Of a stretch of DNA of 40,638 bases, positions 3,076-28,611 are shown piece after piece. Below the pieces are notes generated by a model. It worked only from the letters and a program-made list of their open reading frames with translations, was not told where the DNA came from and made no database searches. Positions within the stretch are counted from its first letter, which is position 1; the number at the start of each line of letters is the position of its first letter. The translations under genes and the position numbers were made by a program. This DNA is from a virus (Duplodnaviria; Heunggongvirae; Uroviricota; Caudoviricetes). The stretch lies in the IMG/VR virus record IMGVR_UViG_2778261641_000011. The stretch is one strand, 5' to 3'.

Positions 3076-3140
3076 TTAACACGTAAAATCGGTAACGGCT
3101 GGAAATCATTCAATAATCGCACTATCGAAAGTTCGCCAGC

Positions 3141-20859: not shown

Positions 20860-21010
20860 GCGTCCCCCTTCTGGCCATAGCCAGTGCGCCCACCAGCAGT
20901 AAAGCACCGGACAAAATCAGAGCCGGAGCCATACCAAACTGCAGGTAAATCCCGCACGTAAGCAGGCCAAAACCAGCCAGCCCGATAACATCAGCAATTA
21001 GTGATTTCAT
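20846..21010 (-). CDS. Small hydrophobic protein (54 aa, two predicted TM helices) translationally coupled to terminase
   Basis: ATGA overlap with the terminase large-subunit stop; product [53 protein letters not shown]. Below the 60-aa track cutoff. Confidence 0.4.
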
Positions 21011-22740
21011 AGAATTAAGAGATCATCGTCCGGATCAAGAGATGAGAGGAAATCGTCAGGTTCTTTGAGCATTGCCCGACCGATCGTCATAATCAGTGCA
21101 ACCGCACCATCGATTTTGTTTTCCGCCTGCTCCTTGACGGGCTTCACTAAATCATCGTTACCTGGCATGTTTTTGCCGACCACATTGCCGATACACCAGG
21201 TCATGATGGGATTGCCGTCATGATGAAAGCGTCCCGATTCAATCGCTGCTTCCAGCTCTTTCATAGGATCGGACATATTGGCGAAGTTCTGGACGATAGT
21301 GACGGGATTCAGATCTTCATCAGCAAGGTCATGTGACAGCCCGGTCGCCCCGAAGGGGTCGATGGGTGACTCACTGACCGGGCTGATTTTGTTCGCCGCT
21401 TTGGCCTCTTCGAGGATGTAGCGATAATCCACCTCTGCACCATCGGTAACGGTCAGGACGCCCATTTCCACCCATTTCTGAAAGCGTTCGGCTGTCCGTC
21501 TATCTTCATTTTTCTCGACGCTGTACACCGTGTCATACGGTACCCAGAAGCGCGGGGCCACACTGTAGTAATGCGTTTTACCGTCAATCTCGCGGGTATA
21601 AAGTCGCGCCATGCTGTTCATATCCAGCTTACGCGCCAGGTCAAAGGCCAGAATGCACGGCTGCCCCTCGAACTGCTCAAGGGTCAGTGATTTATCCTCG
21701 CAGCTCTGCCAGCTCACCAGGTTGAAATACGCCGAACGTGCCGACACCCAGATATTGAGGTGTTTTGTCTTAAAGACGTTTGCCAGACGGGCGTTATTTT
21801 TCGCACGCTGCTGCTGACTTAACAAAAATTCGCGATAAACCGACACGCCAATATTTGGATTGGCTTTTTCCAGCACCTGCGGGTCGGTCCAGTCGTCACC
21901 TTCATCAACGGTATAGATGATCCCGAACAGTTCATCGTTGGGTACCGAACCGTTGAGCATCTCGATAACTTCCCGCCGCTTGTCGTAGCACGGCCCCTCA
22001 ATGTTGTACCCGGCGGTGGTGATGGCCCACATCAGTGGCTGACGTCGCGCCCCCATCCCGGTAAGCATCGTGGTATAAAGCGCATCGGTGGCGTGCTCGT
22101 GATATTCATCCACCACCGCACAGTGGGGTGATGAACCATCACCGGGGTTACCGATCAGCGGTTCAAAACGCGCACCATCCTCCGGACGGTTCATGTTTGA
22201 GGCGTTAACCTCAATCCCGAACGCTTCCGTCAGCATGGGTGTGCGTTTACACATCAGTCTTGCCGGACGAAAGACTTCCCATGCCTGTTTCTCCGTCGTG
22301 GCACCGGAATACACTTCCGCGCCGAACTCGTTATCACAGGCAAAACAATACAGGGCGACACCGGCAGAGATTGCCGATTTGCCGTTCTTACGGGGGATTT
22401 CGGTATACACCTCACGGAAGCGGCGCAGCCGGGAGCCTTTATTGACCCAGCCAAACGCGCAGCAGATCACAAAGAGCTGCCACGGCTCCAGCGTGATGGG
22501 CATCCTCTTGAATGCCCACTCACCCTTGGTGTGCGGCAACAGCTGAATAAATTTGGCGGCCCGTTCAGCCAGATCCTTGTCGAAGCGGTAACGAAACGAC
22601 TTACTTTTTTCCGCCATCAGGTCATCAAGATGGCGCTGGCAGGCCTGAATCACAAACTGGCAGGCCACAATCTTTCCGCGCACGACATCCCGGGCATACT
22701 GATTGGCAGCATTTACGTTGGGGTAAGATTTCCGGCTCAT
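21007..22740 (-). CDS. Terminase large subunit
   Basis: 577 aa with an ATPase N-domain and nuclease C-domain architecture; preceded by the small-subunit gene. Confidence 0.9.
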
Positions 22741-22753
22741 GATTCGATGATTT

Positions 22754-23248
22754 TCAGATTGTCAGAAACGGGTTAGTGGCTTTCTTCTTCCCCGCCAGGC
22801 CAATCAGACGCTGGCGGCTGCTGGGGTCGAGTCCGAGCATTGCACCCGTGCTGCTCATCTCGGACTCCTGTTCTTTTTTGGCGGTCAGCTCCGGATTTTT
22901 GACCATGCCGCCCATTGCACCGGTGATGGTGTTGCCCTGTATGGCAATATTTTTCACGGCACGTCGCCAGAACTCATAGGCCACGCACCACCGCTCAAGT
23001 ACCGCCAGGTCAGTCACGCACAGCAGGCCCTGACCGCAGAGTTCTTTGGTTGTCAGTTGCCACATGATCGTGGCGAGAGGGAGATCTTCTTCAGCGAACC
23101 ACTCCGGTGGCTCAACACCTTTGATGGGCGTAAAAACAGGTTCATCTTTGTTCAGGGCTCGCTTGCCGGGGTTTCCGGCCAGCGCCTTGCGCGCCGTTGG
23201 CTTGGGGCGACGCCCGGAACGCCCCGCCGTTCCAGCCATATGCGGCAC
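22754..23248 (-). CDS. Terminase small subunit (P27-family-like)
   Basis: 164 aa with a basic N-terminus ([22 protein letters not shown]) typical of small terminases. Confidence 0.7.
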
Positions 23249-23347
23249 TCCTGGTTAAATTTCATTTTTCGCGGGTATAAAAAAACGATGGGGCGGGCAG
23301 TCCGGAAGACGTCAGGCTGCAGGGATTTGACCCGCCCCTCCCCTCAT

Positions 23348-23393
23348 GCAGTTGAGAATTATTATCACTAGGCAGTTGAGAATTATTATCACT
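23348..23393. repeat. Two tandem 22-bp direct repeats (gcagttgagaattattatcact) between the HNH and terminase genes; candidate cos/terminase recognition element
   Basis: Exact copies at 23348-23369 and 23372-23393; a flanking GC-rich inverted repeat lies at 23291-23340. Confidence 0.5.
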
Positions 23394-23739
23394 TTAGCCG
23401 TTCACGGGCCGTCTTCGCCTTATGGCACGGCCAGCACAGGCTCTGCAGATTACTGTCTGCATCGGTGCCGCCATGCACTTTAGGGATGATGTGGTCAACG
23501 GTTTTAGCTTCACGCACCACACCGGCACGCAGACATAACTGACACAGGCCTTTGTCACGTTTCAGCACACGCGCACGGATAACGTCCCACTTCGAACCGT
23601 AGCCGCGCTGATGACGGGATTGTCCTGGCTTGTATTGCTTCCAGCCTTCGCTTTTGTGGCTTTCGCAGTAGCCTGACGGGTCTGTCGTGGTATTACGGCA
23701 GCCGCGAACGCGGCAGGCTTTTGGAGTTCGAGGGGGCAT
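23389..23739 (-). CDS. HNH homing-type endonuclease associated with the packaging module
   Basis: 116 aa with Cys-rich zinc motifs and a DHIIPKVHGG...N HNH core. Confidence 0.8.
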   Translation of the reverse strand: MPPRTPKACRVRGCRNTTTDPSGYCESHKSEGWKQYKPGQSRHQRGYGSKWDVIRARVLKRDKGLCQLCLRAGVVREAKTVDHIIPKVHGGTDADSNLQSLCWPCHKAKTARERLK

Positions 23740-23765
23740 AAATATATTCCTGTTCTTTGTTCGGA

Positions 23766-24038
23766 CTATTTGACTGCTGCCAGCAAAGCGTTACGGCGCA
23801 TCTCGATACTTCGAATCCCCGCTTTGTCAATATTGCATTGTCCCAACGCCGAAAGCAGGCTCACATTCAGATCCAGACTGGCCCCATAGGTCAGCGGCTC
23901 GGGAATGACTGGCTGGGGAGTTTCAGTAGTCAGGCTTGCTGGCAACGGTACCGCCGGAATCGGTACGTAAACTGTTCGCGTACTTCCGCAACCGGTCAGC
24001 AGCGGCAGCAGGCACAGGGCGTACAGCACAATCATCAT
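23766..24038 (-). CDS. o-spanin (Rz1-like outer-membrane lipoprotein), overlapping the Rz frame
   Basis: Starts at MMIVLYALCLLPLLTGC (lipobox LTGC); Pro-rich mature part. Out of frame within and beyond the Rz 3' end. Confidence 0.6.
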   Translation of the reverse strand: MMIVLYALCLLPLLTGCGSTRTVYVPIPAVPLPASLTTETPQPVIPEPLTYGASLDLNVSLLSALGQCNIDKAGIRSIEMRRNALLAAVK

Positions 24039-24348
24039 CCGCAACAGCCACTTTGATATCAGCCTGGGTTCTCTGTGACTCCAGTGCGATCTGCTGTTTT
24101 GCATGCTGGTTAGCCTCCAGAACTGTATTGACGATTTGCAGTGATTGCAGGACGTTATTGGTAATAGCGGTTGCCGATTCGGCATTTTGTACAGCCTCAT
24201 CAGCACGTTTCTTTTCGCGCTGGTATTTGCTGTGGTAGTGGTTAGCTGACCAGACGAGAGAACCGAATAAAGTCAGGAGGAAAGCAGAAATAACCAGCTT
24301 ATAGCGAAGTTTCATTAACCACCCCGCCAGCTTCTTTGAATTTGGCAA
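23923..24348 (-). CDS. i-spanin (Rz-like)
   Basis: 141 aa; N-terminal TM segment (LVISAFLLTLFGSLVW) then a coiled-coil periplasmic domain; follows the endolysin. Confidence 0.7.
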   Translation of the reverse strand: MPNSKKLAGWLMKLRYKLVISAFLLTLFGSLVWSANHYHSKYQREKKRADEAVQNAESATAITNNVLQSLQIVNTVLEANQHAKQQIALESQRTQADIKVAVADDDCAVRPVPAAAADRLRKYANSLRTDSGGTVASKPDY

Positions 24349-24775
24349 TCAGACTATCGATCTTGTGTTCATACTGACCGTAGCCAGCACCGGGCAATGA
24401 AGCCCAAATATTGCTGCAACGGTCGATTGCCTGACGAATATTGCCACGGTCAATCATCGGTAAAGCGCCACGCTCTTTAATCTGCTGCAGAGCTACAGCG
24501 TCCTGGCTTTCTGGAGAAAAATCTTTCAGGCCAAGCTGTTTACGGTAAGCATCCCACCAGCGTGAAAGAAGCTGGTAACGTCCGGCGGCTGTTGACTTGA
24601 GTTTCGGGTTTAGCGTGACAAGTTTGCGAGGGTGATCGGAGTAATCAGTGAAGAGTTCACCACCGACAATAACGTCATAACCGTGGTTACGTGTCGGTTG
24701 TCGTCCGTTATCCGTTCCTTCTGACCAAGCCACCATATCAAGGAAAGCTTTACGCTGGGAATTTAGTACCTGCAT
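24299..24775 (-). CDS. Endolysin, lambda R-type lytic transglycosylase
   Basis: 158 aa, near identical in motif content to lambda R (NSQRKAFLDMVAWSEGTDNGRQPTRNHGYDVIVGGELFTDYSDHPR...). Confidence 0.9.
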   Translation of the reverse strand: MQVLNSQRKAFLDMVAWSEGTDNGRQPTRNHGYDVIVGGELFTDYSDHPRKLVTLNPKLKSTAAGRYQLLSRWWDAYRKQLGLKDFSPESQDAVALQQIKERGALPMIDRGNIRQAIDRCSNIWASLPGAGYGQYEHKIDSLIAKFKEAGGVVNETSL

Positions 24776-26243: not shown

Positions 26244-26393
26244 GGATCAGTAAGCGTAACTCTGGTAGGCTCACTCTGCTTTTGCGCTAAAGCAGTGGGC
26301 CGTGGTTCGCTTGTGACCAGTAAGCATGAGCGAATGGCTGGCAGGTGCTACCAACACCCACCAGCCGCCCATTTTCACAGCAGGAAACCGCTA

Positions 26394-26597
26394 TTACTGG
26401 CAGCGTCTGAATTTATTCCCGTACCCGCCGTTATCCTTCGCCAGACCCGCCAGAACTAACTGAGTCAGTATTAACTGGCACCGGGCTTCGCTTACTCCGG
26501 TAGTTCTCGTCATCATGCGTGGCGTTACCCACTTGTCAGCAGGTAAGAAATGAAGGACTGCGGCGGCGGTTTCTGTCATATCTTGCTGTTTTAGCAT
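26394..26597 (-). CDS. Small putative winged-helix DNA-binding protein
   Basis: 67 aa from the Met with an AAGGGA RBS (track ORF 26394-26621); C-terminal helix-rich region; sits directly upstream of the methyltransferase. Confidence 0.45.
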   Translation of the reverse strand: MLKQQDMTETAAAVLHFLPADKWVTPRMMTRTTGVSEARCQLILTQLVLAGLAKDNGGYGNKFRRCQ

Positions 26598-26723
26598 GTC
26601 TTTTTCCCTTCTGGTTAACATGACATACCAATAACTCTTGTCTAAAAATCCAGCAAGATAAAAAGTCAGTATTCACGACCACCAGCGTGTTTACTGTACT
26701 GCACCAAGTTTACAGGTACAAAA

Positions 26724-26750
26724 AACCCGCTCAGTGGCGGGTTCCTAAAT
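26724..26750 (-). terminator. Intrinsic terminator just downstream of the Q-like gene (tR'-like)
   Basis: Minus-strand hairpin aacccgc-cactga-gcgggtt followed by TTTTTTG. Confidence 0.6.
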
Positions 26751-26789
26751 CTTATCAACGGTAGACATACAAAGCCCATCGTTGGGAAA

Positions 26790-26818
26790 ATCTTATCCAT
26801 ATTTTTTGAAAAATGCAA
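26790..26818 (-). promoter_or_regulatory. Candidate late promoter (PR'-like) between Q and the terminator
   Basis: Minus strand TTGCAT - 17 nt - TAAGAT, about 40 nt upstream of the terminator hairpin. Confidence 0.3.
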
Positions 26819-26849
26819 GCATCATGTCGACATCTTCGGCGAAAACCAT

Positions 26850-27632
26850 TTATCTTGTCACCTTTCTCAATTGTATCTCTGCATATGCTTCTTCCTGCCA
26901 GCACTTTGTAACCAGTTTATCAATGACATCTGCATATCCTTTGTACCACTGATAATCCGTCAGGTCTGGTACCAGCTTCTGGACATGATGCCGCGCCAGT
27001 GTGGTTGGTAAACGGCTAAACCGGTTTCCATTGCAACGCCCACAAATCTTATAAACAGGCGTGCCATGAAGCCGGGTCCTTTTTTCATCCAGGACAATAC
27101 CTTTACCCTTACACCCTCTGCACGCTGTGCTGACTTCTCCCTTACCATGACAATGCTGACATAGTTCCTTCACCCACTCTTCCTTGATAACAGATTCCCC
27201 GCTTCTGGAGTGTTTCACCACTTCGCGCAATACATTATGAAATCCAGTACCAGCACAATGCTCACAGCGAGCCTTACTTGCCGCAGACCTGGAATAATCA
27301 GCAAAGGCAAAATTCACAAGGTAAGGGATGATCTGTAACCGGGTTTCTTCACTCAATTTGTTCAATGTCGGGTTATCCAGTGCCATCGCGTAATTGAGCA
27401 GACCTTCAATCGCAAATTGAGGATCCTGAACACCAACTTTTGCCAGGAATAAGGCAAACCCAAGCGGTGCTTTCGACTGCACCATCCCCTGCGCAGCCAT
27501 CACATCCGTAATCGTTAAACCACCTGAGCCTGTCGCCGGTGCGTCATCGCTCAATTTTGGAGATTTTGGGGAGTAATATTTTGGTAAGGCTTCAAGGTTC
27601 ATGCTCGTTCTCCACTTACGCCAATACGCCAA
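26850..27632 (-). CDS. Putative late-gene antiterminator (Q-like), multi-zinc-ribbon
   Basis: 260 aa with four CxxC pairs (CEHCAGTG, CQHCHGKG, CRGCKGKG, CGRC); located immediately upstream of a promoter-plus-terminator unit preceding the lysis genes. Confidence 0.55.
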   Translation of the reverse strand: MAYWRKWRTSMNLEALPKYYSPKSPKLSDDAPATGSGGLTITDVMAAQGMVQSKAPLGFALFLAKVGVQDPQFAIEGLLNYAMALDNPTLNKLSEETRLQIIPYLVNFAFADYSRSAASKARCEHCAGTGFHNVLREVVKHSRSGESVIKEEWVKELCQHCHGKGEVSTACRGCKGKGIVLDEKRTRLHGTPVYKICGRCNGNRFSRLPTTLARHHVQKLVPDLTDYQWYKGYADVIDKLVTKCWQEEAYAEIQLRKVTR

Positions 27633-28611
27633 TTGCCAGCGCGCGATCGATAAAACGAAATATCAGCTCCAGCTGAGAGCCATACTTCTCTTCAAATGCC
27701 ACGGTATCCGCATGCAGCTCGTCGTGATGCTTTCTGCACAAAGGCAACACAAAGAGGTCATGCGCTTTTGTACCCATTCCACCCTGACCGTGGCCTATCA
27801 GGTGGTGGGGATCATCAGCAGGCTTTCCACAACATGCACACGGCTGCGTCTTAACCCAGCGCGTGTACTTTTCATTAACCCAGCGGCGACGTTTTGGGCG
27901 TAACATAAAAGACTCCGGCGACTCCGGATCCACTTTCAGCGCCAGCACCTTTTTCGCTTTATCCTGGATAATGCTGGTGGCAGGAACCGAAGGCACAAGG
28001 TCACTTTCCCGTGTGACAGACGGCACAACAGGCTTCGGTAATCTCAGTGCCTTACGGGCTGCACTTTCCGGTAAGGCATCCGCCAGGTCATTACGAATCA
28101 GCCACCAGCACAGTTCCGGCATTGTCACAACGTGACTATCATCAAAACCGAGATCCCGACGCACAACAGACAACACCCAACGGGCACAGTTATCCGTTGC
28201 CATTGATTCCAGCCGTTCCGTGAACTGATCGCGCAGCTGGTTATCGCAGTGCCAGCACAGACGGATTGCGCCCGGAGCGTGTCGCATTGTGGTCATGTTC
28301 TCGCTGTGCCAGTCGGAATGAGGCCACTGGCAGCCTTTTTCACGAAGTAACCAGCTTTCAAGACATTCCACGCCACCAGCACGACGGATCACTGCCTCAT
28401 TGCGGAACACGGCCCGAACGGCAGGATCATCCGCCAGCGGTTGTGATGCCGCCGGAACGGCACCACTGGCGAAAGATGAATAACGTTCCGGCTCAGGCTC
28501 CAGCAGGACACGCCCCTGCATAAACAGGGGCATCAGCTCTGAACCTGGCCTGAACAATACGATCCCCATACGCGGGGCAATTTCAGGGGTCAGTAGTGCT
28601 CTCACGGTCAC
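27616..28611 (-). CDS. DUF968-like phage protein with an HNH-like motif
   Basis: 331 aa; C-terminal CACCGKPADDPHHLIGHGQGG...CRKHHDELH; lambdoid nin-region position. Confidence 0.5.
   Translation of the reverse strand: MTVRALLTPEIAPRMGIVLFRPGSELMPLFMQGRVLLEPEPERYSSFASGAVPAASQPLADDPAVRAVFRNEAVIRRAGGVECLESWLLREKGCQWPHSDWHSENMTTMRHAPGAIRLCWHCDNQLRDQFTERLESMATDNCARWVLSVVRRDLGFDDSHVVTMPELCWWLIRNDLADALPESAARKALRLPKPVVPSVTRESDLVPSVPATSIIQDKAKKVLALKVDPESPESFMLRPKRRRWVNEKYTRWVKTQPCACCGKPADDPHHLIGHGQGGMGTKAHDLFVLPLCRKHHDELHADTVAFEEKYGSQLELIFRFIDRALAIGVLA

Follow-up and report, generated by a model that had tools for sequence, protein, structure and literature searches.

A rare tandem duplication of a Fur-box-type palindrome beside the predicted cos site of an SfV/SfI/phiP27-type prophage

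What is the role of the short non-coding stretch that separates an HNH endonuclease gene from the terminase genes in this prophage, and what do the exact direct repeats and the GC-rich inverted repeat within it contribute? In the window, the whole 40,638-nt stretch of DNA that was analysed, all genes in this part lie on the minus strand. In gene direction they run from a Q antiterminator (26850-27632) through a DNA methylase, a holin, an endolysin and Rz/Rz1 to the HNH gene, from where a gap of 149 nt leads on to TerS, TerL, the portal, an HK97-fold capsid protein and a tail sheath. The HNH gene (23389-23739, minus strand) encodes a packaging accessory nuclease of the HK97 gp74 type with 116 aa (Pfam HNH, E = 2.8e-16), which is 38% identical to the HK97 HNH protein over 65 aa and 94% identical to that of SfIV. 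The small terminase TerS (22754-23239, minus strand; Pfam Terminase_4, E = 1.6e-20) is a member of the P27 family with 98% identity to SfIV TerS, and the large terminase TerL (21007-22740, minus strand) matches Pfam TerL_ATPase and TerL_nuclease and shares 26% identity with HK97 gp2 (E = 2e-30); a Pfam Phage_portal match is present in the module as well. By these Pfam assignments, the region under study sits between the HNH gene and P27-family TerS/TerL genes. Its terS border depends on the start codon, for which the list of open reading frames gives GTG at 23248. We take ATG at 23239 to be the true start, since it is preceded by AGGAG at 23248-23252 and is the one annotated in SfV and RefSeq.

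Elsewhere in the prophage, the open reading frame at 24299-24775, in endolysin position between holin and Rz, has no Pfam match even at E <= 0.01; at the equivalent position, SfV is annotated with the endolysin gene R. A second nuclease of the HNH type is encoded at 27616-28611, directly upstream of the Q antiterminator: a DUF968 protein of 331 aa whose C-terminal domain is HNHc_6-like. In SfI and its relatives, tRNAs are found downstream of Q (PMC3636060); a search with ARAGORN returned no tRNA gene in the gap between Q and the DNA methylase (26244-26849), nor elsewhere in the window.

Judged by its sequence, the region is the cos site of an HK97-like, HNH-associated prophage of the SfV/SfI/phiP27 type. 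Sequencing of SfI virion DNA ends had revealed a 10-nt gap, 5'-TGCCCGCCCC-3', relative to the prophage (PMC3636060), and exactly this sequence is found on the gene strand at 23290-23299 (minus strand). The annotated cos-site of phiP27 aligns with it at an offset of 1 nt, and in a search of a phage collection the deposited genomes of SfV, SfIV, SfI, SfII and ST64B were found to start or end within 23200-23450. The cohesive end is flanked by the elements that accompany it in related phages, a G-box with TCAAATC 34 nt upstream of the cut and a block with an A/T tract downstream. The initial annotation, which had expected cos or terminase elements in this intergenic region, was thus right about the place, as the SfI cohesive end, the phiP27 cos-site and the SfV and SfIV termini all fall here.

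Identity with SfI places the cohesive end at 23290-23299, and the ends of the present prophage are predicted from it. Terminase, acting with the HNH protein, would cut TGCCCGCCCC at this position and produce 10-nt 3' ends, with nicks probably falling between 23289 and 23290 on the minus strand and between 23299 and 23300 on the plus strand. The polarity of the overhang is deduced from the run-off reads, which from both SfI ends yield a gap rather than an overlap and hence indicate 3' overhangs; the overhang of HK97 is likewise 10 nt long and 3' (PMC9410871). Packaging would then begin toward terS and would terminate when the motor arrives from the HNH side. As a cos site, the region is ordinary and of a known kind. 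Its placement would fix the virion ends, and hence the correct genome start, for a type of prophage with matches in 1,128 of 5,426 complete E. coli genomes, roughly one in five; in 612 of them the match covers at least 80% of the query.

Where in this region would TerS bind? From 321 related loci we collected 177 distinct cos regions, stemming from Escherichia, Shigella, Salmonella-type phages, Klebsiella, Serratia, Providencia, Morganella, Photorhabdus, Xenorhabdus, Gilliamella and others. Across these, the highest information content of the region, nearly 2 bits per position, is reached in an almost invariant block of 31 nt, TTTTTATACCCGCGAAAAATGAAATTTAACC, at 23253-23283 (minus strand), corresponding to +7 to +37 from the cut; its conservation exceeds that of the adjacent coding DNA. 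In loci from Photorhabdus, Morganella and Xenorhabdus, the terS ATG lies behind an insertion of 50-70 nt, and the distance between block and cut is unchanged. This constancy in spite of the longer leader argues for an element of cos and not for a translation signal. The minimal TerS site of HK97, CTAACCCGATTTTTT, comprises the 15 bp from +15 to +29 downstream of the cut; it includes an A-tract, and its C:G pair at +21 is essential (PMC11331095); ACCCG followed by an A/T tract is common to this site and to our block. By analogy, TerS most likely recognises this block (23253-23283), which lies across the cut from the repeats.

At the protein level, TerS and HK97 gp1 were not connected by BLASTP (E = 4.9), and Pfam does not place gp1 in Terminase_4. 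A phmmer search of the PDB with TerS gave 0 matches, and a Foldseek search of the PDB with its AlphaFold2 model (pLDDT 69.7) gave nothing below E = 0.8. With similarity between TerS and gp1 undetected, the assignment of the candidate site draws entirely on analogy and conservation at the DNA level; it gives the search for the TerS site of P27-family terminases a starting point.

On the HNH side of the cut, the G-box GAGGGGAGGGGCGGGTCAAATCCCTG (gene strand; 23320-23345, minus strand) is conserved across the 177 cos regions; it follows the pattern GGGG..GGGTCAAATC and keeps the distance to the cut that it has in HK97. We consider it a candidate upstream cos subsite in a cosQ-like position. Further upstream lie the direct repeats, which the initial annotation had described accurately. 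The repeated sequence, GCAGTTGAGAATTATTATCACT, is exact over 22 nt and occurs at 23348-23369 and 23372-23393, with 24 nt from start to start; Tandem Repeats Finder reports a period of 24, 1.9 copies, 100% matches and a score of 92. An adjacent exact 22-mer cannot be the product of chance. The HNH-proximal copy 1 (23372-23393, minus strand) overlaps the last 5 nt of the HNH gene, including its TGA stop codon at 23389-23391, and the cos-proximal copy 2 (23348-23369, minus strand) is an extra copy in comparison with almost all relatives. The unit that was duplicated in tandem measures 24 bp and reads AGTGATAATAATTCTCAACTGCCT and then AGTGATAATAATTCTCAACTGCAT on the gene strand; relatives carry it once, and their full-length matches span 227 nt as compared with 251 nt here.

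This allele is rare. The two-copy form was found in seven of the 5,426 E. coli genomes, five of which were aligned with the window; the duplication junction occurs in 1 of 2.9 million IMG/VR contigs, and all of the first 80 IMG/VR loci lack the duplication. E. coli E89, CUPF06 and XDL are examples of carriers. It is present on different HNH and cos-spacer backgrounds, which points to spread by recombination, concerted evolution or recurrence. In E. coli BY63, the central position of the palindrome has changed from A to G in both copies alike, suggesting either gene conversion or a duplication of separate origin; terS of this duplication-bearing prophage is annotated as frameshifted. The differing backgrounds and the shared change in BY63 speak against an artefact of assembly. 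The repeats are thus a rare 24-bp duplication of a segment that includes an AT-rich, Fur-box-type palindrome as well as the stop codon of HNH; most probably it is neutral or has a mild modulatory effect. The duplication also creates a sigma-70-like site, TTATCA-16-TATTAT, at 23362-23389 on the plus strand, antisense to the late genes, which is the only promoter-like match within 22700-23900. A candidate IHF site in the repeat (WATCAANNNNTTR), with two mismatches by eye and no conservation in relatives, was dropped.

What, then, is the element that was duplicated? Each copy holds a 7-1-7 palindrome, TGATAAT-A-ATTCTCA on the gene strand, at 23377-23391 in copy 1 and at 23353-23367 in copy 2. Scored by consensus matching only, it agrees with the Fur-box-type core TGATAATnATTATCA at 13 of 14 positions, the variant in the window being C instead of A at position 12, and both copies agree with the 19-bp Fur consensus GATAATGATAATCATTATC (PMC11353095) at 14 of 19. 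Overlapping matches to the 19-mer lie 6 nt apart (23348/23354 and 23372/23378), in keeping with the described cluster pattern in which Fur sites overlap with an offset of 6 (or 3) bases (PMC2189734). The palindrome is therefore a predicted Fur site both by consensus and by its overlap pattern. In the whole 40.6-kb window, the two copies are the only matches with at most two mismatches, and about 0.005 core matches at the level of 13/14 are expected per shuffled window, so that a match by chance is unlikely.

The palindrome recurs well beyond the immediate relatives. In 117 of 219 distinct cos regions, a Fur-core match of at least 11/14 is located some 20-30 nt from the AAATC of the G-box, and in seven of these the match is perfect. 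An unbiased search for 15-nt palindromes in 74 strongly diverged upstream regions returned four perfect ones, all of them exactly TGATAAT-n-ATTATCA, against a null expectation of 0.3% per region for any perfect palindrome of this length. In four of the loci (L131-134), the box lies away from the HNH stop, which means that TGA-TAA stop codons do not account for it. In five IMG/VR loci (L159, L162, L165, L167 and L311), two Fur-like palindromes, one beside the G-box and the other at the HNH stop, are spaced 51-59 nt apart within the 115 nt that precede the G-box, a dispersed counterpart of the duplication in the window. No promoter-like site was detected on the gene strand at the Fur box, which is situated inside a Q-dependent late operon and does not overlap the -35/-10 elements of a Fur-repressed promoter, and the palindrome is absent from viable relatives. 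It is an accessory element, located on the side of cos that is packaged last and not required there, and by analogy it most likely binds host Fur as its lambda-type equivalent does; occupancy by Fur is predicted for this site.

The lambda-type equivalent is found in cryptic prophages of E. coli K-12. In an information-theory study, the Fur sites of nohA and nohB ranked among the strongest of this strain: that of nohA, at position -233, has 22.3 bits, was positive in gel shift and was selected in vivo, and that of nohB, with 25.3 bits, was found by Fur titration (PMC2189734). The nohA gene is the Nu1-like small-terminase gene of Qin, and in the sequence of that region the box proves to be a perfect palindrome, TGATAATCATTATCA, with its centre 233 nt before the ATG of nohA (about 3095-3109 of locus L359). 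It ends 36 nt before the lambda-type cosN GGGCGGCGACCT. Phage lambda carries the identical box, TGATAATCATTATCA, at 48,452-48,466 (453-467 of locus L360), 36 nt from its right end. As far as can be read from the sequences, two mechanistically different cos systems thus have a Fur-type operator a short way upstream of the cut, on the side that is packaged last. Our literature search returned no paper linking Fur to cos function, packaging, terminase or prophage in this sense, and the Fur ChIP-exo pan-regulon paper mentions neither phage nor terminase nor HNH in its text or supplements. The connection between the Fur-type boxes of lambda and Qin and those of the HK97/SfV/P27 group was not found in the literature searched.

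Taking these lines of evidence together, we consider it probable that the region is a cos region in which the GC palindrome is incidental, the repeats are a duplicated accessory box of the Fur type, and the TerS site lies across the cut. Each component has to be weighed against other explanations, beginning with the GC palindrome, for which the initial annotation had given an inverted repeat at 23291-23340. The inverted repeat, ggggcggg/cccgcccc, does exist, with coordinates that differ by 1-2 nt: its arms of 8 bp occupy 23290-23297, within the cohesive end, and 23331-23338, within the G-box, with 33 nt between them. An 8-bp GC inverted repeat is by itself unremarkable. Together with the T-run that follows on the gene strand (ATCGTTTTTTT) it could be taken for a hairpin, either a cruciform that terminase recognises or an intrinsic terminator located behind HNH. 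However, the loop would measure 33 nt, a terminator scan called nothing at the inverted repeat, and RNA folding of the region is no better than that of shuffles (z = +0.24). Only three of 71 diverged regions keep all eight pairs, the paired fraction of 0.61 compares with 0.44-0.59 when the partner is slid by one to four columns, and compensatory changes between the arms are absent from these regions. Thus, the combination of covarying stem, short loop and T-tail that marks an intrinsic terminator or a conserved hairpin is missing, and the palindrome is not conserved as such. Since the arms do not covary across relatives, the palindrome is incidental, made up of two separate conserved elements, the C-rich cohesive end and the G-box/TCAAATC element, that are complementary by happenstance; a hairpin is largely refuted by the missing covariation and hardly credible. 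Other hairpins near the G-box, for example GGGTAGGG/CCCTACCC, form in some lineages and are inconsistent across lineages. The repeats, in turn, had been put forward as terminase recognition elements, and they could be pictured as a cosB- or pac-like array of TerS sites that positions TerL and HNH on the GC-rich cut site. They do lie in the intergenic region beside cos, some other lineages have two copies of the palindrome about 56 nt apart, and the TerS sites in lambda cosB are direct repeats, located on the first-packaged side. Against such an array, nearly all relatives with 98-99% identical TerS have a single copy, and SfIV, an isolated, infectious phage (PMC3851460) with 98% identical TerS, 94% identical HNH and the same cos, has a different sequence at this position, TAAGAACCAGTTCCC, and zero copies of the palindrome. 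In several genera, the G-box follows the HNH stop with nothing in between. Packaging can therefore proceed without the element and, as SfIV lacks it despite a near-identical terminase, the repeats are most probably not the TerS site. They are also on the wrong side of the cut when compared with HK97, 48-103 nt upstream on the last-packaged HNH side and not between the cut and terS, where the almost invariant block is found, and their conservation is far below that of the block. A recognition array formed by the conspicuous repeats is hence very unlikely.

If the repeats are an accessory element, does the palindrome bind any factor, and if so, which one? The duplication might be a neutral scar of replication slippage or unequal recombination, in a palindrome that has no bound factor and whose likeness to Fur boxes is without function. 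The rarity of the allele, the dispensability of the element in SfIV, the missing promoter context and the frameshifted terS of the BY63 prophage would all be compatible with this. It does not readily explain why the position of the palindrome is fixed in more than half of 219 diverged cos regions when the non-coding DNA around it has diverged, why the perfect palindromes from an unbiased search all equal the exact Fur consensus, why the same box is found beside cosN in lambda and Qin and is Fur-binding there, or why the duplication occurs on different cos-spacer and HNH backgrounds. We therefore regard a functionless scar as unlikely, while granting it some weight. In most relatives the palindrome is directly adjacent to the HNH gene, and it lies no more than about 60 bp from the cut; it could alternatively be the operator of a phage protein, such as HNH itself with its N-terminal zinc ribbon or another packaging accessory. 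We give this little probability: the half-site equals the exact Fur consensus in several lineages, the box is likewise present at cos sites of the lambda type, where there is no HNH protein, the palindrome is not beside the HNH stop in HK97 and in L131-134, and SfIV is devoid of the palindrome yet has an HNH protein that is 94% identical.

Returning to the accessory Fur-type box, one may ask what it could accomplish at a cos site. A tentative and rather doubtful extension is that iron-loaded Fur, bound upstream of cos, serves as a host factor for the processing of genome ends, both in lambda-type systems and in HNH-dependent systems of the HK97/P27 type. Fur might slow the arriving packaging motor like a brake, or bend the DNA, and so assist it in recognising and cutting cos; alternatively, replicating phage DNA might titrate Fur off host promoters. 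The tandem duplication would then represent a natural two-site allele with stronger Fur occupancy. If true, phage packaging or yield would be coupled to the iron status of the host. With regard to whether Fur or iron affects packaging, nature provides a series of alleles, with one copy in SfII or SfV, two copies in the present prophage and zero copies in SfIV.

How does this locus compare with known systems? It is closest to the cos regions of SfV, SfI, SfII, SfIV and phiP27, with which it shares the gene order Rz, HNH, cos, P27-family TerS and TerL and is identical in TGCCCGCCCC, the G-box and the downstream block. None of these phages, however, has the 24-bp tandem duplication at the HNH stop that accounts for 251 instead of 227 nt in the window. 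The resemblance to HK97 is more distant and extends to the architecture of the site. There, a G-run with TCAAATC (GGGGGGGGGATCAAATC) is found exactly 34 nt from the end of the cohesive end, GAC directly precedes a GC-rich overhang of 10 nt, and a motif of ACCCG with an A/T tract lies downstream of the cut, at a distance of about 15-30 nt. The two systems have homologous TerL and HNH proteins, and cleavage in HK97 depends on the HNH protein gp74. In contrast, TerS is without detectable similarity to its HK97 counterpart in sequence or fold, the HNH gene of HK97 ends about 320 nt from cos, and the HK97 palindrome is degenerate, at 10/14.

The comparison with lambda-type cos sites concerns mainly the Fur-type palindrome. 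As in the window, nohA of Qin, nohB of DLP12 and lambda have a 7-1-7 Fur palindrome that precedes a small terminase gene, in their case a Nu1 homologue, and is located on the last-packaged side, a few tens of bp before the cut. The lambda-type systems differ in having no HNH protein and a cohesive end of the lambda type, and the box of lambda and Qin is perfect and single, whereas the predicted box in the window matches at 13/14 and is duplicated. In lambda, moreover, cosQ and I2, a termination subsite and a host-factor site, are located upstream of cosN; they are packaged last and are not known to be needed for initiation. The G-box and the palindrome have no sequence similarity to cosQ/I2 but correspond to them in their position upstream of the nick site, and by this analogy either of them may have a role in the termination of packaging.
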